NCBI GenBank assembly: GCA_963757685.1
Contig: CAVWSW010000006.1
Span: forward strand, 359,083 to 423,082
Direction of reading: 5' to 3'
DNA from: an uncultured Actinomycetota bacterium
GTDB taxonomy: Bacteria > Actinomycetota > Actinomycetes > Actinomycetales > Demequinaceae
DNA: 64,000 nt
Below are positions 8,337 through 47,489 of the stretch, piece by piece. Below the pieces are notes generated by a model. It did not search any database and was not told where the DNA came from. It worked only from the letters and a program-made list of their open reading frames with translations. A program made the translations under genes and the position numbers. Each line of letters opens with the position of its first letter. Positions within the stretch are counted from its first letter, which is position 1.

Positions 8337-8376
8337 AGCACAACCGTACTTGAGACCGCAATCTTCACGTGCGCGG

Positions 8377-8937
8377 TCACTCCTGACCGGCAAGCAAGGC
8401 GATGATCCAAATGATCGCGGCGGTGACGATCGCGGCTGTAAGGCCCACCACTATCGCGGTCGTGATCAGCCGCTTGTGGCGAGCGGCCTCGCGACGCGCT
8501 CGCGCCTGGGCAGGGTCTTGGACTCCTACGTTTTCCGGCACGGGCGTGGCGCGCGCGGGCTCTGGCGGAAGGCTGATGGGAGCGGCACGCGGCACGTACT
8601 CCTCTGCAGGTTTGCCGAATTCTCCGCGTTCCGCGACCGCGCCGCCGATCTCGCCGGGCGGCAACGCGGGCAACGCAGGTTTGCGCGTGGGCGCGGCTGT
8701 GGACTTACCCTTTGCGCGCCGAGACAAGCGGGTCGCGTCGGCTGTCTCATCATCAACCGCCATGTGGCGCGAAGAGAGCTCTGTGTATTCGTCGGGTTCG
8801 GTCGCCAGCTGGTCGCGCACGCGTACCGACAGCAGCGTGACGTCTTCCGCCTCCTTGTTGCGTTCGGAGAGTTCCGTCGAGTCCGCGACGGCTTCCGTAG
8901 CCGGCTGCGCAACTACGGGTTCACCGGGCTCCGTCAT
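8377..8937 (-). CDS. Hypothetical membrane-anchored protein (disordered cytoplasmic part, C-terminal TM); last gene of kinase operon
   Basis: ATG overlaps PP2C stop (ATGA); C-terminal hydrophobic helix; D/E-x-T motifs (EDVT, DEYT, DDET). Confidence 0.7.
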   Translation of the reverse strand: MTEPGEPVVAQPATEAVADSTELSERNKEAEDVTLLSVRVRDQLATEPDEYTELSSRHMAVDDETADATRLSRRAKGKSTAAPTRKPALPALPPGEIGGAVAERGEFGKPAEEYVPRAAPISLPPEPARATPVPENVGVQDPAQARARREAARHKRLITTAIVVGLTAAIVTAAIIWIIALLAGQE

Positions 8938-9749
8938 GCCCACACCCTCACTCGCGTGGTCTGCGTGGTGTCGTCGTCTGAAGGGTCTTCCGTCCACATG
9001 CGCCACGGCGCCGCCTCGGCGCCCGCGCTCGTGCGTACGCCAACCGCTTGCACCACCACTGCCGTGACGTTGTCGGACGTCTTACCCGCGAGGGCCGCGT
9101 CCACGAGGCGCTCTGCGACGTCGGCCCCTGACAGCCTCACCACCTCGGCAATGCGCGAATCGGTGACGGCCCTTGTCAGCCCGTCCGAACACACCACGAG
9201 CCACTCTCCCGGAACGGCCGGCATGAGCCACGCGTCGAAGCCGAGCATGCCGTCCCCAATAGCTCGCGTCACCACATTGCGCTCGGGATGAGTCAGCGCC
9301 TCAACCGCCGTGATCTCGCCCGCGTCAAGCAGGTCTTGCACGTACGAGTGATCAACGGTCACTTGCTGGATGAAGTTTTCGGTCACGCGATAGACACGCG
9401 AATCACCAACGTTGACGACCATCCACCATGGCTCGCCGTTGTGCTCAACCGCCACCACTCCCGTGAGGGTCGAGCCCGAGTGGCTACCCACTTGTGCGGA
9501 GATAGCCATCACGTCGACTTGTGCCTGCTCCACGGCGGCGGCGACCTCGTCTGGGCCAATGACAGGGGCGCCTACCAGTGGCAAGAAGGCCTCGACCACC
9601 GCTGCACTCGCCGCCGCCCCGGCCGCGTGCCCGCCCATGCCGTCGGCCACGATGAATACCGGACCGGACGCGCAATAGGAGTCCTCGTTACGTGGACGTG
9701 GACCCGCATCGGTCGCCCCTCTGCCAACACCCCACTGCATGGTCCTCAT
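8934..9749 (-). CDS. PP2C/PPM family Ser/Thr protein phosphatase
   Basis: R..NED, VADGMGGH, NVGDSRVY, CSDGL, DNVT motifs. Confidence 0.93.
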   Translation of the reverse strand: MRTMQWGVGRGATDAGPRPRNEDSYCASGPVFIVADGMGGHAAGAAASAAVVEAFLPLVGAPVIGPDEVAAAVEQAQVDVMAISAQVGSHSGSTLTGVVAVEHNGEPWWMVVNVGDSRVYRVTENFIQQVTVDHSYVQDLLDAGEITAVEALTHPERNVVTRAIGDGMLGFDAWLMPAVPGEWLVVCSDGLTRAVTDSRIAEVVRLSGADVAERLVDAALAGKTSDNVTAVVVQAVGVRTSAGAEAAPWRMWTEDPSDDDTTQTTRVRVWA

Positions 9750-10948
9750 GATGCGAGTTCGCGTTGGTCGATGATGATCGCCTCGAGGTCGCCCAATAGC
9801 AGCGTGCCCTCGATCTTCGCTTCCGTTTGCGCCTTCACCTCAAGTTCGGTCCCGGACGTGTCACGGACAAACGTGCCATTCGTGGATCCAAGGTCGGTGA
9901 CGAACCAATAGTCGGACTCGCGCCGCAATCGCGCATGCAGCTTAGACATGGTGCGGGTGTCATCGATGATCGGCAGCACGCCGGGAATGGGGCGGATACC
10001 TTCGCGCCCGATCGTCGTGATGTCCTCGAGGTCGTATTCCTCTGCTCCGACGACACGTAGCACCCACCGTGCACGGCGCCGCTGGGCAAAGAAGGTCGCG
10101 TCATCGTCGTCGTCGAGACCCCATGCGAGGGGGTCTGGCAGCGGCACTGGGGTTAATGGGGCGGCGTCTATGTCGTAGGGCGAATAGCTGCGCGGCACCT
10201 CACCGGTGACGTCGTGTTCCTCAGTAGTCATGATTTCTTCCCTCAGTTCTGGCACTGCCGTGGGTTCTTCATTGCCCGACGCTGGTTCCGGTTCAGGTTC
10301 GGGTACAGATTCCGGTTCGGGTACAGATTCTGGTGCTGGGTCACGTGCAGATTCCGGTTCGGCAAGAGCGACGGCCGCCGGCGCGACCACTCTGCGAATC
10401 GCTCGCGTGGCGTCGTCCGCTTCTGGGAGCTGCTCGCTCTCTTGGGCGACCGCGCCCACTACGGGACCGCCAACGGCGGCGCGCACACCGCCGAAGCCAA
10501 CGACCGTCGCCCAGAGCGGGGGGAGGATCGCGGCAAGCCACCACAGCCGTTGCTGTACCACCAGGCGCGTCTCGATACGGTTTGCACCAAGAATCCAGAA
10601 CACCCAGCCAACAAGCGACGCGAGTACTGCGACCGAAACCGCAAGCCCTGCGATGACGCTTAATTCGCCAGAGCCCGCTACTGCGTCGGCCGCGCGCAAG
10701 GCAACAACGACTCCAAAGACGAGCCACGCGGCGGCCGCGACTGCGCGCGAGATCCACACCGGAGCCGTGGGAAGGTCGGCGGCACGTGCCGCGACCACGT
10801 AGCGATAGATGGGAATCCAGGCGCCGCCAAATGGGGCGTCGTCGTGCCCTCTTCCCATCTTGGCGAACACCGCGGTCAGCGCGAAGCCCATCCACACAAA
10901 GGCCACAAGGAGAGCAACGAGCACAACTGCAAACTCAGCCAACACCAT
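9746..10948 (-). CDS. Multi-TM protein with C-terminal FHA domain
   Basis: N-terminal TMs (AWIPIY), Pro/Glu linker, FHA motifs IGR, MSKLHA, DLGSTNGT. Confidence 0.85.
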   Translation of the reverse strand: MVLAEFAVVLVALLVAFVWMGFALTAVFAKMGRGHDDAPFGGAWIPIYRYVVAARAADLPTAPVWISRAVAAAAWLVFGVVVALRAADAVAGSGELSVIAGLAVSVAVLASLVGWVFWILGANRIETRLVVQQRLWWLAAILPPLWATVVGFGGVRAAVGGPVVGAVAQESEQLPEADDATRAIRRVVAPAAVALAEPESARDPAPESVPEPESVPEPEPEPASGNEEPTAVPELREEIMTTEEHDVTGEVPRSYSPYDIDAAPLTPVPLPDPLAWGLDDDDDATFFAQRRRARWVLRVVGAEEYDLEDITTIGREGIRPIPGVLPIIDDTRTMSKLHARLRRESDYWFVTDLGSTNGTFVRDTSGTELEVKAQTEAKIEGTLLLGDLEAIIIDQRELAS

Positions 10949-13448
10949 TGGCGCCCCCCTTGTCAGAGGCCCGCGCATGCCAATGCGCGGGTTGCGCGGT
11001 GGAGGGAACCGGTTCGGGAGCCTGCGTCGCGACGGAGTTCCACATCGACCGCAACGAGAGGCGCATCTTCGCCCTCCCCCAGAAGCCGCGATCCGCGAGC
11101 CACGCGGCCCGCTCAGAGGCAACGAGTCGCCAGAATTCGTCGGCGTCCTCCAACACTGCCCCCCTCGTGCTGAAGGTAGTGCTGTCAGTCAGTTGCGCGA
11201 GCCGGACCCCGCTAAGGCTCCCGTACGCGCGAGCGGTTTCGAGGCGCGTCGCGAGAGGCATGGGTGCAAAGCCCGCGTCGACCGCAGTGTCGAGGTACTC
11301 TTCCCAGCCGTTGTGTATCGAGTCCCATGGCTGACCTACGCGGCGCCGACGCCGACGCAGTCCCTTCCATACGAGGATCGCGAGGAACGGCCCCAGGATC
11401 ACGAGCACTGCTAGCAGGCTGATCCCCGCCGCGCGGGCGACCGGTCCAATCGCGTCCCAGAAGCTTTGGTCGGCTGGCGCGGGAGGTTGAGTTTGCGCCG
11501 CGGAACCGCGCTGACTGGAGGGCGGCGCGATGGGCTCAGCGCGCCGAGGGTCAAGGTCCGGCGCGAACTTGGGGTCCCGCTGCTGCGTGACGATCGGCGA
11601 CGGCGAATTCGTGTGCTGCGGCGTGACATCCACGGGGATCCACGTCCCGTTTGCCGACTGCACCTCCGCCCACACGGCCATGTTTTGACCGCGGCACGTC
11701 CCCTCGACGCAGGCCGGGACTGACCAGCCCGTCACATCGGTGTCCGTGAGGTGCACACCGAGCACAACGCGCGAGGGGAATCCAAGGTTGGCCGCGATCA
11801 GTGCAACGGCCGCGGCGAACTGCTCGTCGTCGCCTATCGCAGCGACGAGGCTCGCTCCCGGAGTGTCCGCAACGGAGGCCTCGCGTTCGTTGAGCTGGGT
11901 GAAGAGGCGGTCGATTCGGTCGTACGAACTCCCGGCAGCAGAGCCCGCGAACGAGTATGACCCGAGCGCCGCCTCCCACGCGGCTGTCGTGCCCGATTCG
12001 GTCAGCGAATGAGACAAGTAGCCTCGTTCGCGCAAGCGCTTTACGAGCTCGGCGAAACCCGCACCGTCGTGCGTTACGCCCTGGTGAGTGACCCAGTCGA
12101 CAAGCGACGTGGGAACGAGGCTCGACGAGATGGTGTCGCCACCGGGCGCGGCGCCCAACATGTTGAGAGCGGGCGCGGTCGCCGGAACATAGGCCGATAC
12201 CGTGTACGAGTCACGTGCCACCAACGCGCCGGCGTTGGTCACAAGGCCGGTGCCGGTGGCGGGTTGATAAAAGAAAGAGTCAACGAGCTCGCCATTGTGC
12301 TCGCCGTGGAAGGTGACGGACCCCAAGCGCCCGATGAGCGGCACCCACACTCCTGTCGACGCCTTGAGCGTGATCGTCGCGGACACCGGCACCGAGTTTT
12401 CAGGAGCGGCAATGCCGGACGGCACCCTCTGGAACGGTGCGGAAGTTCCTTCCGGGCCGGCAGCGGTGAAAGAGTCTCCGTCGAAGAACGGCAACGTCGC
12501 GAGGCGCACGCGGTCGGCTTCGCCACTCGTGACATCGACGGTGAAGAGTTCCGCGTCAAATTGGTCGTCAGAGAAGTAGTTGCGGTACGACGCGAGCGGG
12601 GTGACGGTCGAGTTCACCACCACGCGCGGCTCGATCACGGAACGCGCCACGCTTCGTGGAATGTCCGCGGTAATGGGCCCGGCGACGAGCGATCCCACCA
12701 CTAAGGCGACGGTGACCATTGCCAGTCCACCAACAAATGCTCCAAGCGATCGCGCGGGATGCCTCCCGGACAGGCTCGCCGTGGACGAGCCTTTCAGCAA
12801 CGACCGACGCCGCACATAGATCGCCCGCCAGGTAGTCCACCCAAGCAGCACCGCGAACGTCGACAGCCCGATGACAAACTCTTGGTTCATATAGACGCCG
12901 TACGGAGCCCACGCGAGTTCCGGCGCGCGAGTCGCGGGACCTATCAAGACCGCGGTGGCCACCATGATCGCGGTGACGAGGCCGGCGAAGCCCCACCAGC
13001 GTCGGGCGCGCGCAGCGAACGTTGTGGAAACCACGGTGCCGACGAGCAACAAGGCGAGAGGGGGCACAAGCGTCGCGCCATACTCGCCAAGCGGAAGCGG
13101 CAGCGTAACCACGTCCTTCCATCCCGCGACAGGGCCCCTCGCGAGTTCTCCGAGCGCGGCAAGCAGTGTCGTGTCACCGGCCGTGAAGCTTGGGATCGCG
13201 AGAGTCAACCCGATACCCACATACGCGGCAACGGTGAGCCCGGCAACACTCAGCCCGTTCCAGCCGAGACGATCGCTAACGACGACGATGACCGCGCCCG
13301 CCGCGATGCTCGCCGCGGACACCGCGACGAAAGCCCTCGACTCGTAGACCGGGTACAAGGACCACGCTGCCATCGCTGCACCAGCGGCCATAAAGGCGGC
13401 GCTGATGAGCGCATAGGTCACCGTCGTTTGGCGGGCGGGACGGCTCAT
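10935..13448 (-). CDS. Multi-TM transglutaminase-like (TgpA-type) protein with degenerate catalytic triad
   Basis: About 7 N-terminal TMs; TGase core GDDEQFA..LGFPSRVVLG..AVWAEV..WIPVDVTP; C-terminal TM. Confidence 0.85.
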   Translation of the reverse strand: MSRPARQTTVTYALISAAFMAAGAAMAAWSLYPVYESRAFVAVSAASIAAGAVIVVVSDRLGWNGLSVAGLTVAAYVGIGLTLAIPSFTAGDTTLLAALGELARGPVAGWKDVVTLPLPLGEYGATLVPPLALLLVGTVVSTTFAARARRWWGFAGLVTAIMVATAVLIGPATRAPELAWAPYGVYMNQEFVIGLSTFAVLLGWTTWRAIYVRRRSLLKGSSTASLSGRHPARSLGAFVGGLAMVTVALVVGSLVAGPITADIPRSVARSVIEPRVVVNSTVTPLASYRNYFSDDQFDAELFTVDVTSGEADRVRLATLPFFDGDSFTAAGPEGTSAPFQRVPSGIAAPENSVPVSATITLKASTGVWVPLIGRLGSVTFHGEHNGELVDSFFYQPATGTGLVTNAGALVARDSYTVSAYVPATAPALNMLGAAPGGDTISSSLVPTSLVDWVTHQGVTHDGAGFAELVKRLRERGYLSHSLTESGTTAAWEAALGSYSFAGSAAGSSYDRIDRLFTQLNEREASVADTPGASLVAAIGDDEQFAAAVALIAANLGFPSRVVLGVHLTDTDVTGWSVPACVEGTCRGQNMAVWAEVQSANGTWIPVDVTPQHTNSPSPIVTQQRDPKFAPDLDPRRAEPIAPPSSQRGSAAQTQPPAPADQSFWDAIGPVARAAGISLLAVLVILGPFLAILVWKGLRRRRRRVGQPWDSIHNGWEEYLDTAVDAGFAPMPLATRLETARAYGSLSGVRLAQLTDSTTFSTRGAVLEDADEFWRLVASERAAWLADRGFWGRAKMRLSLRSMWNSVATQAPEPVPSTAQPAHWHARASDKGGANGVG

Positions 13449-14812
13449 ACGCGGGCTCCCTTCGCGAGGAGCGGGCGCAGGTCGTCAAGTACGCCAAGCT
13501 TGAGCACTCGCGTGCGGCCCATGGGGCGAAGCGAGGGTTCCGCACTGGGATCGCACACAACCGCGGCCACCGCGACGTCGACCGGAAAGGCGAGGGCAGC
13601 GCTCTGCAGATGCGCGAGCGTTGCGCGCGAACCGGTCACAAGAAAAGCCAACGACGTGTCCGAGCGGCTCTCGGCCACCATCCGCGTGATGGAGGGCAAT
13701 TCGACAACCGCATGGCCCGACGCGACGCCAGCCAAGTCGTCGAGCAGAGCTCTGGGGGAGGTCACCTTGAGTTGGCGCAGAGAACGAACGGTCGCGCGCG
13801 CAAACTCTGGGACCTCTCCGCTGGTCACAGCTTGCAAGTCCCTGCCGTCTCGCAACGCACGCACCCCCAGCGAGCCGATCGCACTCACCGCCATCTCAAA
13901 CTCGTCGTCCGACGCGTAGGAGGCAGCATTCAGGTCAAGGACAAGGCTGATCGTCGAGCGCCGCGTCTCTTCGAATTGGCGGACCATCAGCGTGCCGGTC
14001 TTGGCGGTCGACTTCCAATGAATGTGACGTTGCGCGTCTCCGGTCGCGTATTCGCGCACAGACTGGAACGAGATGTCCTCGCTGGTAATCGTCTTGGTCG
14101 CGGAGCCCTCGAGGTCCTTGATGAACCCGACGGATGTTGACGGGATCGCGATAGTCACGGGGTGGATGTACAGCGTGCGGACGTCAGCCCAGTGAAATTC
14201 TCGTTGTAGTAGGTGGAGCGGATCGGTGCGAGTGGTGGTGGCTGGACCAACGTCTACGACGCCCCGGTGCCGAGCGGGGATCTCGATGCGCTCCCTGTGC
14301 TCATGGCCATGGCGCAACAGCGGCACGTGAAAGTCAACAAGAGCGGCTCCAACGGGGATCTGGATGCGACCAGGCAACGCGATCCCCGCGCGTGGACTGC
14401 GCACCACGAAATCCCCAAACGCCTCTTGGCCAGCCACCACTGCGTCGTGCTCAAGCGCGAAGTCCACCTCGTAGTTGGCGCGCCCAATGAGGGTGGGCGT
14501 GGCGAGCAACAACAGGATGATGGCAACGCACGCGCCAATCAGGAACTCGCCCCACCCAACCCCCACACCAACGACAAGACCCACAATCGCCCACAGCAAC
14601 ACCAGCCACCCCGCCGCGGTAACCGTGGATGCGAGAGTTGCCCACGTTCGCCGCAGTAGCGCCCGCACCGCGCGCGCCAGACGCAACGCGCCAATTCCCA
14701 CGGCAACCCACCGGCCGCCAGATTCGTCGAGGTACTCGGTGCGCGTGATCGCGGGCGCAGGCGCGGGACCCGCCGCGGGAGCCCGGGTCTGCGACAGTGA
14801 GCGACTGCTCAC
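13445..14812 (-). CDS. DUF58 family protein (MoxR partner)
   Basis: DPL.L, VREY..GD..RHIHWKSTAKTGTLMVRQFE motif; N-terminal TMs. Confidence 0.92.
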   Translation of the reverse strand: MSSRSLSQTRAPAAGPAPAPAITRTEYLDESGGRWVAVGIGALRLARAVRALLRRTWATLASTVTAAGWLVLLWAIVGLVVGVGVGWGEFLIGACVAIILLLLATPTLIGRANYEVDFALEHDAVVAGQEAFGDFVVRSPRAGIALPGRIQIPVGAALVDFHVPLLRHGHEHRERIEIPARHRGVVDVGPATTTRTDPLHLLQREFHWADVRTLYIHPVTIAIPSTSVGFIKDLEGSATKTITSEDISFQSVREYATGDAQRHIHWKSTAKTGTLMVRQFEETRRSTISLVLDLNAASYASDDEFEMAVSAIGSLGVRALRDGRDLQAVTSGEVPEFARATVRSLRQLKVTSPRALLDDLAGVASGHAVVELPSITRMVAESRSDTSLAFLVTGSRATLAHLQSAALAFPVDVAVAAVVCDPSAEPSLRPMGRTRVLKLGVLDDLRPLLAKGARV

Positions 14813-15774
14813 TCAAGGTCCTTGTGGCTAGGCGGGGGCGTGTCGAGCAATACCTGACCGATGACCGCCGTAGGCGTGACGCCGTCAAACTCCGCCTCCG
14901 GATCAAGGATGAGGCGGTGGGCGAGCACGGCGTCTGCGAGAGTCTTGACGTCGTCCGGCGTGACGAAGGTGCGATCGTGAGCCAACGCCCAAACCCGGGA
15001 CGTGCGAGCGAGCGCGATCGCGCCACGCATCGACGCCCCAAGCCGGACCTGGGTCGCGTTGCGCGTCGCATTGACGATGCGCGCGATGTAGTCGAGCACG
15101 AGCGGGCTGCTGTGCACTTCCCGGCCAAGGTCCACCATTGCGGCGATCGTCTTGAGTTCCACAATTGGGTCCACCGCAACGCGCGGGGGACGGCCGGCCT
15201 CTAGGAGCCGTAGCGTCGACGCGTGGTCCGGATAACCGAGCGACGTGCGCATGATGAATCGGTCCAGTTGCGCTTCCGGCAGCGAGTAGGTGCCGGCCTG
15301 CTCCACGGGGTTTTGGGTAGCGACCACCATGAACGGCGAGCCAGCGACACGAGTCACACCGTCGATCGTCACCTGGCCCTCGTCCATGACCTCGAGCAGG
15401 GCGGACTGAGTCTTGGGGCTTGCCCTGTTGATCTCGTCGGCCAGCACGACGTTCGCGAAAACGGGGCCCGCGTGGAACTCAAACTTCCCCTTCTTCTGAT
15501 CGAACACGGTGATTCCGGTAACGTCCCCCGGCAAGAGGTCGGGGGTGAATTGGATGCGTGTGCTCGTGCCGCGCACGGTCTGCGCCATCGCGCGCGCGAG
15601 CGACGTCTTGCCGGTGCCCGGGACGTCTTCGAGCAACAGGTGCCCCTCGGCGACCATTGCCGTGAACGCAAGTTCAACGACGTGACGCTTCCCGAGCACG
15701 GCAAGCTCAACGTTGTTGCATAACGAACGGAACGTGTCCGCAAACCACTTCGCTTGATCGTCAGTAACAGTCAT
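14809..15774 (-). CDS. moxR: MoxR family AAA+ ATPase
   Basis: LLEDVPGTGKT, RIQFTPDLLPGD, LADEINRA, ATQNP.EQ.GTY.LPEAQLDRF. Confidence 0.95.
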   Translation of the reverse strand: MTVTDDQAKWFADTFRSLCNNVELAVLGKRHVVELAFTAMVAEGHLLLEDVPGTGKTSLARAMAQTVRGTSTRIQFTPDLLPGDVTGITVFDQKKGKFEFHAGPVFANVVLADEINRASPKTQSALLEVMDEGQVTIDGVTRVAGSPFMVVATQNPVEQAGTYSLPEAQLDRFIMRTSLGYPDHASTLRLLEAGRPPRVAVDPIVELKTIAAMVDLGREVHSSPLVLDYIARIVNATRNATQVRLGASMRGAIALARTSRVWALAHDRTFVTPDDVKTLADAVLAHRLILDPEAEFDGVTPTAVIGQVLLDTPPPSHKDLE

Positions 15775-15804
15775 GGGTCTCCTCGAGACATTCATCGGCC
15801 GATT

Positions 15805-18800
15805 TCATGGCGTAGGTGAGGGGGTAGGTGAAGGGCTAGGAGTGACAGAGGGGTTTGGATCGGGCGCACCAGAACACGTCGTTGTGTCAGAGGTCCACTG
15901 GGCGATTCCTTGGAGCGCGCCTTGGAATTTGACGCGAACGCTCGCCGTGCGCATCGCGGTGAAGTCATTCGTGATTCTGTCGTCGACGTCCCGAAGGGTC
16001 CACGTCGCAGACCAATCCGACCTCGAAGCCGCGACGGAGAGCGTGGGCGCCTCGCCCACTCGGCACGCGTCGACCGTGACCTTGGTGCGGTATTCCGCCG
16101 AGCCCGGGACAGGAGACACGGTCGCGAGCGCCGTCGAGCATTGCGTGTTTAGCAGGTCAAACACCACACACACGAACGTGTTGACGGAGACGGGGGCGCC
16201 TATGGGCATGGTCGAGAAATCGGTGGTCGCGGTGTCGCCATCGAAACTGAAGAAGGCAACCGCGCCGAGCGGCATCCCGAGCAGGCTGATGCTGGGTGCG
16301 GTGACGTCAGTGCTGCACCACATGCCGTTGCCGTCGCACGTCGATGCGACCTGATAGCCCGTCGTGACTATTGGCGCGCCAGGGTCAATCCACGGGTAAA
16401 TCGTGACGTCGACGCGGGTTGCCGAGCCGTAGTTAACAGCGCCAATGAGCGACCTCGCACATACGGTGATCTTGTTACTCACATTTGCCGTCACCGGAAC
16501 CGTAAGCGACGCGGTGCCGCCGGTCGCTTGCACCATCGCGCTGCACGCGCCAGCGCTCACGGTGCCGACCCACGTTTCCGAGCCGACGCCGCCCGTCTTC
16601 ACCGAGACCGTCAACTGCGCGCTCATTGCCCCGCCGAGCACCTCGGTACCGATGGTTCCGATCGTCGGGGCGCCAACACCATTCGCGCTAAACGAGACCG
16701 CCGCCCCTTGAGCCTGGGCGCCCGCTATGGCCGGCAAGTCGAGGTTCGTGATGGGCGTCACCGTGACCAATTGCGTGTCGTTGGCGCCGAGGAAGTACGC
16801 GGGGATGGAGACGTGACCCTTGCCGGATATCGACACCACTTTGGTTTCGCCAGAGGCGCTCGTGATCTGCAGGGCGCTCGTGTTGGCGTCGGTGACATCG
16901 AGCTCGATATCGATCCGCTTGCCTTCGCCTGTCGTCGTGCGTGTGGGCAGCCACGTGATGTTTTCCGGCGCCGCCGGGGGTGCGTAGCTCCAGGCGACCA
17001 CGGTGACGGACCCGCGCGATTCGCCGACGCTGTTGACGGCCTTCGCGGAGTACGTGTGCTTTACCCCGTTGGTCAGGCCGGTGATGGGCGCACACACGCC
17101 GTCGGGACCACAGGTTTGCACCTTGGTGGCGCCCTCGTAAATCGCGTAGCCGGTGATCGCCGGGTAAGAAACGCCAGTGCCACTGCTCACCGAGAGCGTC
17201 AGGCTGCCATTCCCGAAGGCGACTTGCCGCACCTCGGAAGGAGCGGCCGGGAAGCCCTGCAGGTCGATCGTTAGGGTGCCAACCCTGTCGCCAGCGCTGA
17301 TGCGGCCCTGGGCGTCCTTAACGGTGTAGGTCGCGGTGCACGTGCTACCAGCAGTGTCGTTTGTCCACGATGCTGTGATTGCGCTGGTACCCGAGACACT
17401 GAAGTTCACATCTGGGCAGTTCGGGTCTGGGATGACGGAGGCCACCTCAAGCGGAGTTTCTGGCAACGGATTGACCTCGCCGGGGCCGCCGATCACGGTG
17501 ACGGTGCAGGAATTGCCTGACGCAGCCGAGCATTGCCGCGAGATCGTCGCGGCCTTGGGGAAGGTTGACGGAGCCGGCCCAACGGTGAAGCTCAGCGATA
17601 CGGCTGGCACGTCCGGATCGGAAGGCAACGACACCGTGGCACCATCGACGTTGCCGGGCACCGAACGGTCCTCCGCCGTGATCGTGAGTACGGTTCCCAC
17701 GCGCGTCACGACAAATTGCTGACCCTGATACTCAAACGCGATGTCGACCGCGCGAGGGGCGGCTCCCTTGGGCCACGTCACCATGCCAGCGAGGTCGAAC
17801 GTGGTCGTCGTTCCTGGTGAGATCTCGAGCGACGCGCTCTTGAGGATGGGCGACGGCGCCCTCGGAACGATGGTGATGGGGACGGGCACGAGCGTGAAGC
17901 GATCCTGATCAGAAACCCGCGCAGAGATGCGGCAGATGTCTGAGTATGGGGCGCCATCAGACGCGGTGTACTTGATCATCGTCCCCGACACAAGTTCGCA
18001 CGTGGAGCCTTTCCGCACGCCCGACGCTGTCACGTCTGAGGGATCGACGATGAGTTCCGCGTCGGCAGGGATAGCGACGAGCGGGCCCAGGTCAAAGGTC
18101 ACCGATGACCCCTCCTCGACCTGAGGTTGCACGAAGGTCTCTTTGAGCGACAACCGTGACTCATCGAGCCCAGGGATACGCAAGAAGCCGTAACTCGTGA
18201 CCTCTTCACCAGCGAAGTTCAGCCCGGTGACCTGGAACGGCACGATCCGGCTCTCATCTGACAGCGGCCCGGAGATTACCCACCCGTCTACCGCCATGTC
18301 TGGCTGATCGCCCCATAGCGAGAGTGTGAGGCCCGCGGGATCTCCAGACGCCCACGAGACTTTCCCGGTGAGCACGTCTACACCCATCGGCAGCGCCTCA
18401 CGGGTGTCGAGTGCAAGCACCGTGTCCGCGACCAACGGCACGTCAACGACGGGCTCCCTGACGGCCTTCAAGATAATGCGGCTCACCGCCGTCGAGCCCG
18501 CCTCGTTTCGCACCGTGTATACGTAAACGAAGGTGCCCGGCTGATCGCCAACGCTCAACGTCACCGTGCCGTCGACTACCGACACCACGCGGCCCGCGAG
18601 ATCGCGGTACTCGTCGGACTCGAGCGGCGCGTCGGGCGACACATCGACGAGCGAGAGTTCGCCGCCTCCCAGGTCAAAGTCGTTTGCCATCGGCAATACC
18701 ACCACGGTGCGTCCGGCCCCCGCTTGTGCCTGCACGTAATCGGTGTACGTCACCGGGCGCGCCTCGAGATCCGCAGCAATCACGCCGATCGTCGCGGTGC

Positions 18801-21800
18801 CGATTGCGGTCTCACCACGCGCGTCGATCACGGAGTACGTGAACGACACCTGGCCGGAGAATCCGGGCTCCGAGGTGTACGCGATGCCGCGTCCGTCCGC
18901 GGTAACTGCGGCGATGCCGGACGGCGGTTGGGTCTCAACTCTTCGCAGGGACACCCTGTCACCATCGGGATCCAGGCGCGTGCCGTCAAACGCGAGCGTG
19001 ACGCTTTCGCCGGATGCGACGCGACCCGTCAGGTTTGGCGGCGTTGGCGGAGCGTTTGTTTGGGAGTCGAGCACGGTGACCACGAGGCGAGCCGTCGCTC
19101 GTTGCCCGGGATAGCCAAGCACGTAGGCGTCGTAGGTAACGACGTAGGTACCAGGTGTCGCGGGTGCCAGATACCGAAGCTTGGAGCCTGCGGCGAAGAC
19201 GAGACCCGCATTTTGGACGTTAACGACCGAGCCGGGATCCAACGCAATCACGTTCCCAGCTGGCCCGATGTCGTTCGTGAGCACGTCGACGTTTGCTTGC
19301 CTTCCGACCCGCACGGTAATGGAGTCATCGACAGCGAGCGGAGGAGTTGGCGTTGTCGTGGCAAGCAGCACCACTGTCACCTCCCCTGTCACGGTCATCT
19401 CCGGGCGACCACTGCCATCGGACACCGTGTAGGTGACGACACCAAGCGGGCCAGGGCGACCGTCGGCTGTCGCTCCGCTCACGCGTAGCGCAGAAAAACC
19501 GATAACGTCTGAGCTGAGCTGGGCGCCAGCCGCGGGGGCCACGCTCACGTCGGAGATGAGCAGCACCCGGTTGCCTGGGTTGGACACCGCCTTGAGGACA
19601 TCCACGGTGGCGTCTTCCTTTGAACGCACGAACGCGGTCAGCGGCACCGTGGTGAGCCGTTCCTCCTGTGGCGCGATGACCGTGATGCGCGCAACGCCTC
19701 GAGCCTCAGAGGTGCCGTCAGTAACCTTGAAGTCGACGAGGTGCGACCCGGGCTCGGTCGCGGAAAAGGTGAAGCCGATTACCGACTGCGCCACGGCAAC
19801 GGAGGCGTCATCCCCAGGAGCCAGCGAAGCCTCGCTCACCTGCAGCGGGCCGACGGCGCCGCTCACGTGCTTGCCAACGTCGACCGTCGCGGTAACGCCA
19901 GCCGTCACGGTAAGCGAGAGATCCCGCACTCGCAATTCCGGTTCGCCGAGCACGGTAATGGTGAGTTCCTTCGAAGCCTGCGCACCGCGCGAATCCGACA
20001 CCGTCACGGACACGGGGGCCACGCCACCCCCGCCCGCGTTCGCGTTCGTGTGCTGAAATACCAAGCGCCCCTCAGGCGAAGCGGCAACGACGCCCGTAGC
20101 GAACGTTGTGGTAGCGCCGGCGAGATAGATCGGGTCGCCCTCTGGATCGACCCATCCGGTCAGCACGTCGGCAGACACGGTGCCGCCAGGGTTTACCTGC
20201 GGCGCGGGCCACTCAGCGAGGCACCCAGCGACGCCGCACCACTCTGGCGGAGTGTTGACCGACGGGTCCTTCACCGTGAGGGTCACAGTCGCGGGGGTAG
20301 ACAGCAGCCCGTCGCTCGTTGTGCCGTCCGTGATGACGTACGTGAAACGTACGGATCCTTTGGCGTTCGGCGAGACCGCGATCACAAGCGACTGATCGTC
20401 GTCGGCAAGCGACAACGTGCCAAACGCTGGATCAAGGTTGCCGATGTCCGGTTGCCACACCGTGAGCACGTCTTTGTTTGCATCGTGGTCGTTGAGCAGC
20501 ACCGGCAAGATCACCTGCCGACCTGCCCGCACGCCAAAGTCGTCGTTCTCGGCCACCGGCGCTCGCGGATCCGTAACCTCGCTGGCAACGTTTTCGTCGT
20601 CGTCCGTAGTCGGCGTTTCCTGGTTGGGGTCCCACTGCTGTGACGAGGCGACGAGTTGCCCGGACGGCACGCTCCAGACCCATCCAGAGCGGCCTTCGTT
20701 GAGGATCATGCGGCTGCCGTTTGACCGGAGCTGCGGGGAGCGCTGGTCTCCGAGCGTGAGACCTCCATAATCGAGCGATGTCCGTTCGCCACTCGACCGC
20801 CACAATGTGCCGGGCCCGCTCCCCGCAGGTAACCACGCGCCAACCAAGTCGCCGGTTGCGGGGTCGATTGCCGGTGACGCAGGCTCTCCGAGCACCACGT
20901 TGGCGGCCCCAAACGTTCGCGTTGCTGAGCCGTCGGAGAGGGACACCTCCACGATTCCGAACGAATCGGCAATGAGTGCTGCGGAGCCTTCCTCACTCGA
21001 CTGCTGCAAGCGACCGGAAGCGTCGACGCCGGAGTCGGATGGCCCGTCGGCGCCGGACCTCCACACCCGGCCAGACGCCGGATCGAAGAGCACCCAGGCG
21101 CTCCCCACCCAAGCGAGTTGGACACCCTCGCCCTGCGGGCCGTCTACGACAGTGTCGATCCCGTCGATGAGGCCCGTAGCGGCGCTAGCGCGCATCACGG
21201 AACCATCCTCAGCTGAATACGCAGCAACCTTGCCTGACGCTGACATTGCGACGGCGACTGCGCGGAACTCCGGGCGTTCTTGACCGGCTGCGACCTCCGT
21301 ATTCGCGAACGGGTCGAGTCGTGTTGGTGACGTCGCGGAACCGTCAGAAACGCGGCCCGCCGTGACCGCTCCGTCGCCGGTCAAGTACGCGACAAAATCG
21401 CCAGAGTGCACCATGGCGTCGGTCCCAGATGGCGTCGCAACCGTCGACTGCGAGCCGGCCGAATCGATGTCCGTTGGCTTCGCGGTGTCTACCGTGGTGA
21501 CGCTGCCAAGGTTGTTCGAGAACACAAGCAGCGCCGTGCCCGACTGCACAAGGTCCGTTGGCGAGGACACGTTCTTGACGGTGTCGACCTCGCCCACGAC
21601 GGTGTTCACCCGGCCAAAGCGCTGGCCAGCCACAGACTGCATTGCCCATACCGACGGGTCGTCCGGTGTCACCTCGCGCTGATCGAAGCCTGGCGCGAGC
21701 GCCGCGCCAATCGCGACCGTAGCGGCAACGGCAACCACTGCCGCCCACGTGACGGCGTGGCCGCGCGCGCCGCCAACGCGGGTGCGGGGAGCGTCGGGCG

Positions 21801-21807
21801 TAGCCAC
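15805..21807 (-). CDS. 2000-aa surface protein: N-terminal TM, probable propeller-like region, tandem Ig-like (Big_9/cadherin-like) repeats, fibronectin type III domain, Pro/Thr tail
   Basis: Repeated P.A..D...V...VL.ND.D..GD.L and F.Y.V.DG units; Fn3 motif GLTNGVKHTYSAKAVNSVGES. Confidence 0.88.
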   Translation of the reverse strand: MATPDAPRTRVGGARGHAVTWAAVVAVAATVAIGAALAPGFDQREVTPDDPSVWAMQSVAGQRFGRVNTVVGEVDTVKNVSSPTDLVQSGTALLVFSNNLGSVTTVDTAKPTDIDSAGSQSTVATPSGTDAMVHSGDFVAYLTGDGAVTAGRVSDGSATSPTRLDPFANTEVAAGQERPEFRAVAVAMSASGKVAAYSAEDGSVMRASAATGLIDGIDTVVDGPQGEGVQLAWVGSAWVLFDPASGRVWRSGADGPSDSGVDASGRLQQSSEEGSAALIADSFGIVEVSLSDGSATRTFGAANVVLGEPASPAIDPATGDLVGAWLPAGSGPGTLWRSSGERTSLDYGGLTLGDQRSPQLRSNGSRMILNEGRSGWVWSVPSGQLVASSQQWDPNQETPTTDDDENVASEVTDPRAPVAENDDFGVRAGRQVILPVLLNDHDANKDVLTVWQPDIGNLDPAFGTLSLADDDQSLVIAVSPNAKGSVRFTYVITDGTTSDGLLSTPATVTLTVKDPSVNTPPEWCGVAGCLAEWPAPQVNPGGTVSADVLTGWVDPEGDPIYLAGATTTFATGVVAASPEGRLVFQHTNANAGGGGVAPVSVTVSDSRGAQASKELTITVLGEPELRVRDLSLTVTAGVTATVDVGKHVSGAVGPLQVSEASLAPGDDASVAVAQSVIGFTFSATEPGSHLVDFKVTDGTSEARGVARITVIAPQEERLTTVPLTAFVRSKEDATVDVLKAVSNPGNRVLLISDVSVAPAAGAQLSSDVIGFSALRVSGATADGRPGPLGVVTYTVSDGSGRPEMTVTGEVTVVLLATTTPTPPLAVDDSITVRVGRQANVDVLTNDIGPAGNVIALDPGSVVNVQNAGLVFAAGSKLRYLAPATPGTYVVTYDAYVLGYPGQRATARLVVTVLDSQTNAPPTPPNLTGRVASGESVTLAFDGTRLDPDGDRVSLRRVETQPPSGIAAVTADGRGIAYTSEPGFSGQVSFTYSVIDARGETAIGTATIGVIAADLEARPVTYTDYVQAQAGAGRTVVVLPMANDFDLGGGELSLVDVSPDAPLESDEYRDLAGRVVSVVDGTVTLSVGDQPGTFVYVYTVRNEAGSTAVSRIILKAVREPVVDVPLVADTVLALDTREALPMGVDVLTGKVSWASGDPAGLTLSLWGDQPDMAVDGWVISGPLSDESRIVPFQVTGLNFAGEEVTSYGFLRIPGLDESRLSLKETFVQPQVEEGSSVTFDLGPLVAIPADAELIVDPSDVTASGVRKGSTCELVSGTMIKYTASDGAPYSDICRISARVSDQDRFTLVPVPITIVPRAPSPILKSASLEISPGTTTTFDLAGMVTWPKGAAPRAVDIAFEYQGQQFVVTRVGTVLTITAEDRSVPGNVDGATVSLPSDPDVPAVSLSFTVGPAPSTFPKAATISRQCSAASGNSCTVTVIGGPGEVNPLPETPLEVASVIPDPNCPDVNFSVSGTSAITASWTNDTAGSTCTATYTVKDAQGRISAGDRVGTLTIDLQGFPAAPSEVRQVAFGNGSLTLSVSSGTGVSYPAITGYAIYEGATKVQTCGPDGVCAPITGLTNGVKHTYSAKAVNSVGESRGSVTVVAWSYAPPAAPENITWLPTRTTTGEGKRIDIELDVTDANTSALQITSASGETKVVSISGKGHVSIPAYFLGANDTQLVTVTPITNLDLPAIAGAQAQGAAVSFSANGVGAPTIGTIGTEVLGGAMSAQLTVSVKTGGVGSETWVGTVSAGACSAMVQATGGTASLTVPVTANVSNKITVCARSLIGAVNYGSATRVDVTIYPWIDPGAPIVTTGYQVASTCDGNGMWCSTDVTAPSISLLGMPLGAVAFFSFDGDTATTDFSTMPIGAPVSVNTFVCVVFDLLNTQCSTALATVSPVPGSAEYRTKVTVDACRVGEAPTLSVAASRSDWSATWTLRDVDDRITNDFTAMRTASVRVKFQGALQGIAQWTSDTTTCSGAPDPNPSVTPSPSPTPSPTP

Positions 21808-22911
21808 TTAGCGCCCCACAACCAGCAAGATGGTCAACACAATTCCAATGACGGCCGCACCACCGATGATGACGCCAATCAGGATGCCGCGCCCGATGCG
21901 GTCTCGCCGACCTTCGCTGCGGCTCTGGGTGCCAGTGCGCGGAAGCGGGTCAAGGACGTGTTGGCGCTGCGTTGCGACACTCACGGTCGAGTGAATGGGG
22001 GCGCCAGAGTGGTCGCCGGCGTAAGCAGAAGGCGCCCACTCTGCACTGGGCAGTTCGAGGGCCGTTATCGGCAAGCCCATCTCCCGTTCAACCGACTGGA
22101 GCGCCTCGCCAAACTCGCGCGCGGAGCCATAGCGGTCGTCGGGCAATCGGCGCAGGCCAGCCTCTAGTGCCGCCTCGAAGGCAGGCGGCGCATCCTCGCG
22201 ACCAGTTGGCACGTACTTGGCGCGCATGATGCGGCCGCGGAGTTGCTCATCCGAGTGGCGACCCCCTGGAATGTCGAACGGAGCGTGCTGGGCAGCGAGC
22301 GTGTACACCGTTGCGGCGAGCGCCCACACTTCGCTCGCGACCGTTCCCGAGCTGCGGCGGTCAACGACCTCTGGCGCACTCCACGGAGGCGACATCGCGA
22401 TCATGTCGTCTTCGCCCGTGACGGTCGCCGAGGCAACGCCAAAGTCGCTCAGCACCGGGTGACCAAACGTCGTGACGAGGATGTTGGAGGGCTTGATGTC
22501 TCGGTGCAGCATCCCTACTCGGTTCGCGGATTCCACGGCCGCGGCTATCTTCACACCAACCGAAAGGACTTCCGCGATGGGAATCTGTTCCGTCCGGTAT
22601 CGCGTCGCCATCGACGACGGGCAGTGCTCCATGACGAGGTAAGGGCGGCCATCCGGCGCCACTGAGGCCTCATACACCGTGAGGATCGCAGGGTGAGCGC
22701 TGAGGCCCGCCATGACGTCAGCCTCCGCCGCGAACGCGCGCGCGGCAGCGTCGTCCGTGATGGGGGTGAGCAAGACCTTTACCGCGACCACGCGGCGAGG
22801 CATGTTCTGCTGGTACAAAAAGACGTCGGCAAAGCCCCCCGAACCGAGCGGGCGCACGTATGTGTAGCCCGGCAGATTGGGGGGAGTCAGTGTTTTGCGA
22901 CGTGCGGCCAC
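21808..22911 (-). CDS. Hanks-type Ser/Thr protein kinase with C-terminal TM
   Basis: LGSGGFADV, VAVK, HRDIKPSN, DFG, APE; terminal hydrophobic helix; GGAGG RBS. Confidence 0.93.
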   Translation of the reverse strand: MAARRKTLTPPNLPGYTYVRPLGSGGFADVFLYQQNMPRRVVAVKVLLTPITDDAAARAFAAEADVMAGLSAHPAILTVYEASVAPDGRPYLVMEHCPSSMATRYRTEQIPIAEVLSVGVKIAAAVESANRVGMLHRDIKPSNILVTTFGHPVLSDFGVASATVTGEDDMIAMSPPWSAPEVVDRRSSGTVASEVWALAATVYTLAAQHAPFDIPGGRHSDEQLRGRIMRAKYVPTGREDAPPAFEAALEAGLRRLPDDRYGSAREFGEALQSVEREMGLPITALELPSAEWAPSAYAGDHSGAPIHSTVSVATQRQHVLDPLPRTGTQSRSEGRRDRIGRGILIGVIIGGAAVIGIVLTILLVVGR

Positions 22912-23046
22912 GGTCCTCCCTCAGGGCCAGTGTCGACGCTCCGGGCGACCTGGAGCGCTAGACGGAAAGACTAACTGAGCGCGCGCCAATCACACCTATG
23001 AGTGTGGCGACCTCCACACTCGTATAAACGCGGCGCAAATCCGACT

Positions 23047-25896
<2,850 letters not shown>

Positions 25897-25942
25897 TGGC
25901 CCATTGTGGCGCATCGTGCCGCGGAGTCATTCGCGCGGCGCG

Positions 25943-30606: not shown

Positions 30607-30785
30607 TCCTGCGTGCGCCTGATGCCTCGCTTTCCCCCCGACGCGGCTCCTGCGTGCGCCTGACGCCTATCTCGTCTTCGCGCCACATCGTGGCGAGGCG
30701 CGGCGGGGCGTGGCGAGGAGTCACGAGGCGTGACGCGCACGCAGGAGTTGGGCCCGCCAGAAAACGAGGCGTGACGCGCACGCAG
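30607..30785. repeat. Fold-back (REPIN/BIME-like) element: two direct units plus two inverted units, 41-bp period
   Basis: TCCTGCGTGCGCCTGA(T/C)GCCT at 30607 and 30648; GAGGCGTGACGCGCACGCAG ending 30744 and 30785. Confidence 0.85.
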
Positions 30786-47427: not shown

Positions 47428-47489
47428 GCGCAGGAAATGCGACAATGATGCCAGGATACGGACCCGTTGGGCCCGCGGAGGGACGACAG

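Follow-up and report, generated by a model that had tools for sequence, protein, structure and literature searches.

We asked what an eight-gene cluster on the minus strand of a contig from a marine Demequina (positions 8377-22911 of the window, i.e. of the whole stretch of 64,000 nt that was analysed) may do, as it encodes a 2000-aa surface protein next to a kinase, a phosphatase and an FHA protein. We conclude that it is probably the Demequina member of the Esr/PFNA family, a membrane-embedded surface-sensing phosphothreonine pathway.

Gene set and coupling of the cluster

Domains were assigned to the eight ORFs with Pfam and NCBIfam profiles, and the gene junctions were taken straight from the DNA letters. 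All eight ORFs were present, co-oriented, mostly overlapping and free of frameshifts and internal stops, and the junctions confirmed the arrangement described in the initial annotation. The eight genes form a single tightly coupled cluster: the GTG of the giant gene stands directly after the TAA of the kinase gene (codon-to-codon coupling), the giant and MoxR genes lie 9 nt apart, and 4-nt overlaps join MoxR to DUF58, DUF58 to the transglutaminase-like gene, FHA to PP2C and PP2C to the eighth gene (ATGA), while the transglutaminase-like and FHA genes overlap by 14 nt. The cluster is flanked by gcvP-like and gcvT-like genes. Upstream of the kinase gene, 135 nt (22912-23046, minus strand) separate it from the gcvP-like gene. 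They are likely the promoter region and include the RBS of the kinase gene as well as a GAGTGTGG...CCACACTC hairpin; a consensus promoter scan of this region found no promoter. The housekeeping PBP/PknA-PknB(PASTA) cluster lies apart on the plus strand at ~42.8-49.4 kb, so that the two are indeed separate, as had been claimed.

The first gene (21808-22911; 367 aa; Pkinase, E = 2.5e-33), whose GTG at 22911 is preceded by the strong RBS GGAGG, encodes a Ser/Thr kinase equivalent to EsrE/Pkb2. It consists of a cytoplasmic Hanks domain, with the VAVK, HRDIKPSN, DFG and APE motifs kept, and a single C-terminal TM helix (residues 347-365). Only two residues lie beyond this helix and the kinase therefore has no ectodomain; orthologues of other families have 90-130 aa there. 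The PP2C Ser/Thr phosphatase (8934-9749; 271 aa; Stp1_PP2C_phos, E = 5e-47), the equivalent of EsrF/PrpC, keeps its DGMGGH and DN motifs, and catalytic or binding motifs are intact in the kinase, PP2C, MoxR and the FHA domain alike. The FHA protein (9746-10948; FHA, E = 1.5e-09), an EsrG-type output protein, is a polytopic membrane protein with four TM helices. Its start is most likely the ATG at 10948 with the RBS AAGGGGGG, yielding ~400 aa, and not 11122.

Relatives of the cluster and their distribution

Pathways of this type have already been published twice, as the PFNA operon and as Esr. The Esr ('epibiont sensing and response') pathway was reported by Wang et al. (bioRxiv preprint, September 2026, doi 10.64898/2026.09.08.750141) in Schaalia odontolytica F0309, which carries Esr1/Esr2. 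In that pathway, which is often linked to Esx secretion, EsrA, a filament of beta-propeller and Ig domains, senses Saccharibacteria, and the output is an FHA protein that a kinase phosphorylates. In Schaalia, a specific transcriptional and phospho response to Saccharibacteria disappeared when esrA was deleted, EsrA was released when esrD was lost, and EsrG was Thr-phosphorylated. Across Actinomycetes 3502 Esr pathways were mapped, of which 40% were linked to esx and 60% did not adjoin esx, with 13 EsrG architectures. The earlier view that the function of the gene set is undescribed can thus not be upheld, as the preprint covers this set with genetics, proteomics and phosphoproteomics; the missing catalytic Cys (see below), Bifidobacterium/PFNA and Demequina are not discussed in it.

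By sequence and predicted structure, the Demequina copy matches Esr gene for gene in seven protein types (EsrA, MoxR, vWA-like, EsrD, EsrE, EsrF and EsrG), with the MoxR and vWA-type (DUF58) genes directly downstream of the giant gene and a taxonomic range within Actinomycetales. It differs from Esr in that its kinase lacks an ectodomain, in an additional eighth gene for a Thr-repeat tail-anchored protein, and in that no esx genes adjoin the cluster in its flanks. Moreover, its FHA protein is a membrane protein with four TM helices, whereas Schaalia EsrG1 comprises a pseudophosphatase, a disordered region and FHA. The kinase without an ectodomain and the polytopic FHA protein suggest that the Demequina output may differ from that of Schaalia. 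In the Demequina assembly (completeness scored 58.7%) one WXG100 gene was present on another contig and EccB was not found. Genes for mycosin, EccB, EccD and two WXG100 proteins lie directly next to a second, tandem cluster of genome G530, which independently reproduces the link between Esr and Esx.

The PFNA operon of Bifidobacterium (pkb2-fn3-aaa-atp-duf58-tgm-prpC-hypothetical-fha) was described by the Nezametdinova/Danilenko group, who read it as a host-cytokine sensor 'unique to bifidobacteria' (PMC8430577). Each cluster numbers eight genes, among them one for PP2C, one for an FHA protein and a small hypothetical one, and the first five genes have the same order in Demequina and in PFNA, as they also do in two Bifidobacteriaceae loci (L073 and L074). 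Identity to Demequina was 38-40% for the kinase, 26% for the giant protein, 52% for MoxR, 36% for DUF58 and 24-25% for the transglutaminase-like protein. The likeness to PFNA that had been noticed at the outset was borne out in a genome that matched both Bifidobacterium 16S primers and carried the kinase, giant protein (with fn3), MoxR, DUF58 and TgpA-like transglutaminase genes in the same order. The Demequina and PFNA clusters differ in the order of the tail (FHA, PP2C and small protein in Demequina; prpC, hypothetical and fha in PFNA), in the giant protein, which in Bifidobacterium has ~1820 aa and a Pfam fn3 domain (residues 1522-1597 in L073), and in the kinase, which in Bifidobacterium has an ectodomain of ~130 aa. 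A restriction of the PFNA cluster to Bifidobacterium is contradicted by the Demequina window and by homologous clusters in many families.

The kinase, giant protein, MoxR, DUF58 and transglutaminase-like genes were kept in order in all 41 related loci with full flanks (Demequina and Microbacteriaceae). This co-conservation, the lack of which had been named as a possible argument against a common role, far exceeds what is expected by chance. When the N-terminal 800 aa were used as the query, homologues of the giant protein turned up in 184 of 401 genomes sampled from the GTDB order, nearly always as ORFs of 2000-2100 aa, and also outside this order; in 18 of 20 cross-family loci a DUF58 and a transglutaminase-like gene followed the giant gene. 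The spread over many families supports the initial suggestion of a general actinobacterial surface machine, not a bifidobacterial speciality.

The giant protein and its membrane partners

The giant protein (15805-21807; 2000 aa; Big_9/cadherin-like Ig repeats), the equivalent of EsrA/'FN3', starts with an Arg-rich N-tail and a hydrophobic segment of ~20 aa that is either a signal anchor or a signal peptide, and continues with a beta-propeller (residues ~50-400) and Ig/cadherin/FN3-like domains up to the C-terminus. With its secretion signal, N-terminal propeller, run of Ig domains and no LPXTG it is of the EsrA type; a C-terminal TM helix is also absent. The predicted structure of residues 38-420 (pLDDT 92, pTM 0.88) is a beta-propeller that matches YVTN, BamB and NirF, residues 400-1060 match Big_9, Cadherin_5 and Cadherin_4, and residues 1060-2000 were modelled (pLDDT 90.5) as chained Ig/FN3-like domains. 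Its first description as a giant Ig/Fn3 protein thus holds for the predicted fold and for the Big_9/cadherin matches but not for the Pfam fn3 family, of which no match was found in the Demequina protein even at E ≤1, while homologues have one. The least conserved part is not the propeller but the C-terminal tip, where the last ~390 aa were hypervariable in both the orthologue termini and the per-region conservation.

The cytoplasmic MoxR-family AAA+ ATPase (14809-15795; 328 aa; AAA_3, E = 2.9e-61, plus AAA_lid_2) has Walker A (GTGKT) and Walker B (DEINR) motifs, and its gene is the most conserved of the cluster, with 52-67% identity across families. The DUF58 (vWA-like) protein (13445-14812; 455 aa; DUF58, E = 1.6e-10) has a Thr/Arg-rich N-tail, a two-helix TM hairpin and a cytoplasmic DUF58 domain, in which the DxSxS MIDAS motif is absent (N-terminus and core aligned over 27 orthologues). 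The MoxR-vWA-beta-propeller ternary conflict systems (Kaur, Burroughs, Iyer, Aravind, eLife 2020, PMC7159879) may share with the Demequina cluster the combination of MoxR, a vWA-type protein and a propeller; as quoted in the Esr preprint, they use kinase and FHA domains as signalling outputs, and according to the same preprint Esr clusters were not detected in the ternary-system survey. The Demequina MoxR scores 43.5 bits against the bpMoxR profile (cut-off 27), far under its 205.6 bits against AAA_3. Again by the account in the preprint, the Esr-type clusters differ in having no polymorphic-toxin/effector domains and in a propeller that is extracellular, on a 2000-aa filament.

The TgpA-like pseudo-transglutaminase (10935-13448; 837 aa; Transglut_core, E = 5e-08), the equivalent of EsrD/'TGM', has, by hydropathy and the positive-inside rule, a cytoplasmic N-terminus, seven TM helices, an extracellular domain (~252-675), an eighth TM helix and a basic cytoplasmic tail (694-837). 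Its profile (A2) matches the TgpA structure 6g49 at E = 7e-09, and the orthologue in L073 also matches TgpA_N. GDDEQFA replaces the G-x-C-x-x-[FY]-A motif, and the catalytic Cys was absent in 64 of 64 aligned orthologues, two of them from the Esx-linked tandem pair; no Cys is among the invariant columns of A2. The position of the Cys was assigned by motif spacing from the aligned TgpA His and Asp, with what we take to be the numbering of the TgpA catalytic triad. In the profile alignment the His of 6g49 falls on a variable column and is usually lost in the actinobacterial proteins, as it is in the Demequina protein, and the Asp is mostly kept. Judged by these alignments, an EsrD-type protein cannot be a Cys-dependent transglutaminase, which puts the covalent anchoring step of the published Esr model in doubt for the whole family. 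A comparable set, the co-transcribed MoxR-DUF58-TgpA triad PA2875-PA2874-tgpA of P. aeruginosa, in which the essential gene tgpA has a link to the cell wall, has no giant protein (PMC3507681). Both sets combine a MoxR-type protein, a DUF58-type protein and a polytopic membrane protein with an extracytoplasmic transglutaminase fold; however, the Cys-His-Asp triad is intact in TgpA, which acts as a transglutaminase in vitro, and only in the actinobacterial set do a giant surface protein and a kinase module belong to the cluster.

How the pathway may work and what it may sense

What the analysis shows is which genes the cluster holds, how they are ordered and coupled, the folds and topology of their products and how widely they are conserved together; that the cluster works as in Schaalia, which cue it senses and what MoxR, DUF58 and the eighth gene contribute we infer. 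In the surface-sensing pathway that we favour, the EsrA-type protein would expose its propeller and ~16 Ig-like domains outside the cell and detect an external, probably cell-borne cue. The Cys-less EsrD-type protein would hold or organise the giant protein at the membrane, and the DUF58 hairpin protein would form the link between this complex and the MoxR ATPase in the cytoplasm. The tail-anchored kinase would thereby be switched on and later reset by PP2C, and the phospho-outputs would be the FHA protein in the membrane and, probably, the tail-anchored protein with the Thr repeats. When the propeller and the EsrD ectodomain were modelled together as a complex, the median score of 0.60 (runs 0.79, 0.60 and 0.18; best control 0.00) lent this pathway weak support. 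The mark used was attained in 58 of 80 solved complexes and in 2 of 110 mismatched pairs; at ≤0.60 it was attained in only 7 of the 80 but in both mismatches, so that a pass of this kind is wrong more often than it is right if the contact was not likely beforehand. To what has been published the Demequina copy adds few new details, namely the Cys-less transglutaminase in 64 orthologues, the kinase without an ectodomain, the variable tip, the conserved eighth gene and the absence of adjoining esx genes.

It is possible, if less probable, that the Demequina copy senses phage, predatory bacteria, contact with competitors or wall damage instead of Patescibacteria, and that its output is not Esx. 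The high diversity of the C-terminal 390 aa and of the FHA output proteins would fit such a cue, as would the lack of nearby esx genes in Demequina and, among the mapped pathways, the variety of EsrG architectures and the majority not adjoining esx; against it, a Saccharibacterium is the only experimental cue known for any member (Wang et al.). The initial annotation also put forward adhesion and a MoxR/DUF58 chaperone pair that would help assembly, both as conjectures. We consider it unlikely that the cluster is there for assembly instead of sensing, with MoxR, DUF58 and the TgpA-like protein serving the export, folding or anchoring of a giant adhesin or fibril and with kinase, PP2C and FHA protein only tuning this assembly to the growth state. 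Triads without a giant protein such as that of P. aeruginosa, the release of EsrA on esrD loss and two orphan giant-protein paralogues without partner genes (L068 and L083) agree with such a role, but the response lost on esrA deletion in Schaalia is not what a passive adhesin would give, and the codon-to-codon coupling of kinase and giant genes also speaks against it. A role of the giant protein in sensing host immune signals, as adhesin or as cytokine receptor, is very improbable: although fragments of the B. longum FN3 protein were reported to bind TNF-alpha and the operon was called species-specific and host-adapted in the PFNA literature, the cluster also occurs in Actinomycetales that live free in the sea, in soil, on glaciers and in lakes (Demequina, Cryobacterium, Leifsonia and Rhodoglobus among them), this distribution contradicts the bifidobacteria-only claim, and a cytokine sensor would be senseless for a sediment bacterium.

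Within the surface-sensing pathway, we tentatively consider an inverted geometry, rather doubtful as it is, at least for the Demequina clade: EsrA would be anchored at its N-terminus with the conserved propeller docked at the membrane on the dead EsrD ectodomain, and the hypervariable C-terminal ~390 aa, at the distal end of the Ig stalk, would be the ligand-binding tip. Demequina giant proteins have a Pro immediately after the AxA-like site, which is why the N-terminal helix would keep EsrA in the membrane. On the same reading, the eighth protein, in which acidic Thr motifs are repeated 2-8 times in tandem, would serve as a scaffold phosphorylated at several sites, with the kinase that lacks an ectodomain as its writer and the FHA protein in the membrane as its reader. 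The eighth gene (8377-8938; ~186 aa) matches no Pfam or NCBIfam family, and its start is most likely the ATG at 8938, not 9006. Its product has an acidic disordered cytoplasmic part and a TM helix at the extreme C-terminus, and carries four T-x-L-S-x-R motifs (residues 44, 57, 75 and 92 of the 209-aa ORF). In the Demequina/Microbacteriaceae clusters, the PP2C gene is likewise followed by an ORF with this location and topology, and 12 of the 13 ORFs with at least four generalized motifs, among 5996 ORFs, were eighth-gene ORFs.

The eight-gene cluster and its surroundings

The eight open reading frames that the initial annotation had described on the minus strand at 8377-22911, free of frameshifts, were confirmed when the ORFs were read and their domains assigned with Pfam and NCBIfam. 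All on that strand, they encode a Hanks-type Ser/Thr kinase (21808-22911), a 2000-aa giant protein with Big_9/cadherin-like Ig repeats (15805-21807), a MoxR AAA+ ATPase (14809-15795), a DUF58 protein (13445-14812), a Transglut_core membrane protein (TGase-like, 10935-13448), an FHA protein (listed ORF 9746-11122) and a Stp1-type PP2C (8934-9749), followed by a 209-aa ORF (8377-9006) without a Pfam or NCBIfam family. At the junctions, the kinase TAA directly abuts the GTG of the giant gene, the TGase-like and FHA genes overlap by 14 nt and four further overlaps are 4 nt long; the genes are predicted to be translationally coupled. Because the junctions were read from the sequence, two starts were moved: the FHA gene most likely starts at ATG 10948, with a AAGGGGGG ribosome-binding site ahead of it, and the probable start of the eighth gene is ATG 8938, where an ATGA overlap joins it to the PP2C stop. 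The kinase gene is preceded by 135 nt of spacer, in which a strong ribosome-binding site lies. A hairpin (GAGTGTGG-AGGTCG-CCACACTC, 22990-23030, minus strand), located upstream of the kinase gene and 3' of the stop of a gcvP-like gene, could be a terminator or an operator. A promoter/terminator scan was uninformative, with fewer matches than in shuffled sequence.

The cluster is flanked by a gcvT-like gene (7218-8393, a 391-aa ORF whose true start is probably later than listed) and the gcvP-like gene (23047-25914, 955 aa), labels drawn from length and from typical sequence at the N- and C-termini rather than from a family search. The same two flanks recur at most Demequina loci, and thus the glycine-cleavage genes are split by this cluster throughout the genus. 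Rfam gave no riboswitch near the gcv genes, its sole matches being three tRNAs. The cluster had also been regarded as separate from the housekeeping kinase genes, and indeed the PBP/PknA/PknB-PASTA division and wall cluster sits elsewhere in the window (42829-49421, plus strand). That cluster includes a PBP-A dimerisation domain, and in the ORF listing PknA and PknB are merged into a single ORF with two kinase domains and PASTA. Fold-back repeat elements were flagged on the first reading of the sequence at 30607-30785 and ~63146.

A scan with the DUF58 protein (one genome per species) yielded 63 loci, all from Demequina/Demequinaceae or Microbacteriaceae, which assigns the window to a Demequina. 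Co-conservation was looked for by comparison of these loci, and the kinase, giant protein, MoxR, DUF58 and TGase-like genes occurred in the same order at all 41 loci with full 10-kb flanks (PP2C at 39, FHA detected at 30). Two layouts were found: in one the FHA and PP2C genes lie downstream, as in the window; in the other the kinase is preceded by PP2C, accompanied by FHA at some loci. Both co-occur within some genomes. At three Demequina loci (L003, L005 and L006) the distance from the TGase-like start to the FHA domain is ~4.8 kb versus ~3.9 kb in other Demequina, which reflects either a much longer FHA-protein ORF (~700 aa) or the insertion of an additional gene. In a wider sample, 184 of the 401 genomes taken from the GTDB order encoded homologues of the N-terminal 800 aa of the giant protein; these came from many families, and their ORF lengths clustered at 2000-2100 aa. 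Full-length homologues were also present in other orders and another class, as expected from the proposal that this is a general actinobacterial machine. When 20 cross-family loci were compared, a DUF58 and a TGase-like gene followed the giant gene at 18 and the giant gene was an orphan at two; most of the 18 also had MoxR and a kinase, and often PP2C.

Relation to the Esr pathway and the PFNA operon

The initial annotation had considered the function of such a machine undescribed, which is now out of date: the gene set is that of the Esr ('epibiont sensing and response') pathway, defined in Schaalia odontolytica by Wang et al. (bioRxiv, 9 September 2026, doi 10.64898/2026.09.08.750141). EsrA, the giant protein of that preprint, is described as carrying a sec signal and, at its N-terminus, a WD40-class propeller, together with 14 Ig-like repeats and no LPXTG; the cluster also encodes MoxR, a vWA protein, the 'transglutaminase' EsrD, the kinase EsrE, the phosphatase EsrF and the FHA protein EsrG. 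Without esrA1 the cells no longer responded to the Saccharibacterium TM7-008 in either proteome or transcription, deletion of esrD1 released EsrA1 to the supernatant, and EsrG1 was phosphorylated at T152 upon infection, with T152A phenocopying the esrA1 deletion. Wang et al. count 3502 Esr pathways, the majority of them from Actinomycetales and Propionibacteriales, and distinguish at least 13 EsrG architectures. Of the pathways, 40% adjoin esx genes. No esx genes adjoin the cluster in the window, and the window's assembly, scored 58.7% complete, contained one WXG100 gene on another contig and no EccB match. We reproduced the Esr-esx link independently in genome G530, where two Esr-type clusters (L071 and L072) lie in tandem on contig C8 (40216-76215) and the second, which has no MoxR of its own, runs straight into genes for mycosin, EccB, EccD and two WXG100 proteins. 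The first of these clusters has a ClpC/ClpB-type ATPase gene upstream. Two other loci, L068 (G009:C11) and L083 (G725:C1), carry full-length EsrA paralogues of ~2000 aa and lack MoxR, DUF58 and TGase genes within 20 kb, and each genome also has a complete cluster; these orphans may be spare sensors sharing one machine.

The Bifidobacterium genus 16S primers Bif164F and Bif662R had exact matches at the expected spacing (~510 bp) in three genomes of a Bifidobacteriaceae-like family and none in a control genome. In this family the giant ORFs measure ~1820-1840 aa, and the gene order at one of its loci (L073) is kinase, giant protein (with an fn3 domain in Pfam), MoxR, DUF58 and TgpA_N/Transglut_core. 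This is the core order of the PFNA operon in a review of Bifidobacterium (kinase, giant FN3 protein, MoxR-type AAA, DUF58, TGM; PMC8430577), and therefore the homology to PFNA claimed in the initial annotation was right. The cluster is not 'unique to bifidobacteria', as that review states. PFNA, interpreted as sensing cytokines, and Esr, which senses threats in oral relatives of Actinomyces, are one and the same system, which reaches free-living marine Demequina. The two literatures do not cite each other and are now joined; the text of the Wang et al. preprint mentions neither Bifidobacterium, PFNA, catalytic residues nor Demequina. This distribution argues that the ancestral role is not host-specific, and we assign a low probability to the giant protein being a cytokine receptor, the reading suggested by PFNA. 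The operon is real and well conserved and the system is already known; the present copy contributes a handful of testable details, of which three bear on the Esr model: an EsrD without Cys chemistry for crosslinking, an EsrA that is most variable at its C-terminal tip and not in its propeller, and, beside the phosphatase, a tail-anchored Thr-repeat protein that is conserved in one clade.

The giant protein and the transglutaminase-like protein

The giant protein begins with an Arg-rich tail and a hydrophobic segment of ~20 residues. Directly after this segment orthologues share the propeller start D-x-[ND]-D-x-[GS]-V-W-V, and AlphaFold2 (57-sequence alignment) modelled the domain as a beta-propeller (pLDDT 92, pTM 0.88), with the YVTN propeller of an archaeal S-layer protein, BamB and NirF as the closest solved folds. 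Residues 400-1060 are Ig/cadherin repeats (Pfam) and residues 1060-2000 a string of Ig/FN3-like domains (model, pLDDT 90.5); a fold search with the model of the whole C-terminal half returned generic Ig-chain matches only and no identifiable tip domain. The protein has neither an LPXTG motif nor a C-terminal anchor. In the Demequina proteins the AxA-like site is followed by a Pro, a residue known to block signal peptidase I at +1. Identity to distant orthologues was ~23% for the propeller, ~21% for the stalk and ~13% for the last ~390 aa; cross-family BLAST alignments end near residue 1600, and the C-termini differ wholly from family to family. Wang et al. (2026) rank the propeller with the most diverse elements; within the orthologues sampled here, EsrA varies more at the C-terminal tip than in the propeller.

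From hydropathy and the positive-inside rule, the TGase-like protein (EsrD type) has its N-terminus inside and crosses the membrane with seven TM helices before the extracellular domain (~252-675); after an eighth helix it ends in a basic cytoplasmic tail. In all 64 aligned orthologues, among them those of Bifidobacteriaceae and the two from the esx-linked tandem pair, G-D-[DEAQSG]-[EQ]-Q-[FY]-[AST] stands in place of the G-x-C-x-x-[FY]-A motif, and a 54-row alignment contained no invariant or near-invariant Cys. A single-sequence PDB search with the ectodomain gave no match, whereas a profile search did; in the profile alignment to Pseudomonas aeruginosa TgpA (6g49), the catalytic His faces a variable column and the Asp is mostly kept. 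TgpA, in contrast, has an intact triad and in vitro activity (PMC3507681). On its sequence EsrD cannot crosslink by Cys chemistry, and the covalent-anchoring step proposed for it is unlikely to proceed as a transglutaminase reaction. The sequence and the EsrA release phenotype are both compatible with EsrD acting as a scaffold or in retention. A complex prediction for the propeller and the EsrD ectodomain gave a median of 0.60 (runs 0.79, 0.60 and 0.18; best control 0.00). Of 80 solved complexes, 58 reached the mark for such predictions, as did 2 of 110 mismatches, with only 7 of the 80 and both mismatches at 0.60 or under, and we treat the modelled pairing as a tentative lead, not as evidence of binding.

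Phospho-signalling proteins and the proposed mechanism

The kinase keeps all catalytic motifs, and its ORF ends two residues after a single TM helix. Among orthologues, 0-10 residues follow this helix in Demequina-type clusters versus 90-130 in the other layout and in other families, Bifidobacterium included. With almost nothing past the helix, the Demequina kinase must presumably be controlled through its helix or its cytoplasmic face. MoxR and PP2C also retain their motifs. The DUF58 protein comprises a Thr/Arg-rich N-terminal tail, a two-helix hairpin and a cytoplasmic DUF58 domain without the DxSxS MIDAS motif; in the FHA protein an acidic/Pro-rich linker joins four hydrophobic helices to a canonical FHA domain. 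TRTEY in the DUF58 tail was considered as an FHA ligand, a motif conserved only in Demequina and some Microbacteriaceae.

The eighth protein is acidic and disordered with a TM helix at its end. By BLAST it matched only in the two nearest relatives, but by position, topology and motif an ORF overlapping the PP2C stop sits after PP2C throughout the Demequina/Microbacteriaceae layout. PFNA likewise has a small hypothetical gene after prpC (PMC8430577). The eighth protein and its counterparts in that layout carry 2-8 tandem Thr motifs, which take the form T-x-L/M-S-x-R in Demequina but T-V-V-V-D/E-R in Microbacteriaceae. At least four generalized motifs occurred in 13 of the 5996 ORFs of all loci; 12 of these were the eighth-gene ORF and the thirteenth lies within the same cluster. 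We infer that the kinase and PP2C act on the eighth protein at multiple sites and that the FHA domain binds it.

We consider it fairly likely that the Demequina cluster is a surface sensor. The giant filament would detect an external, probably cell-borne, cue and would be kept at the membrane by EsrD; DUF58 and MoxR would link the membrane complex to the kinase, PP2C would reset the kinase, and the membrane FHA protein and the Thr-repeat protein would carry the signal. We give a low probability to the giant protein being solely an adhesin, given the loss of the Schaalia response upon esrA1 deletion. The window's own assembly contains two further, distant DUF58 paralogues (C7:50041-50634, E 2.5e-12; C5:4049-4498, E 5e-08), presumably parts of other MoxR systems, and a single TgpA-like gene was found in it.
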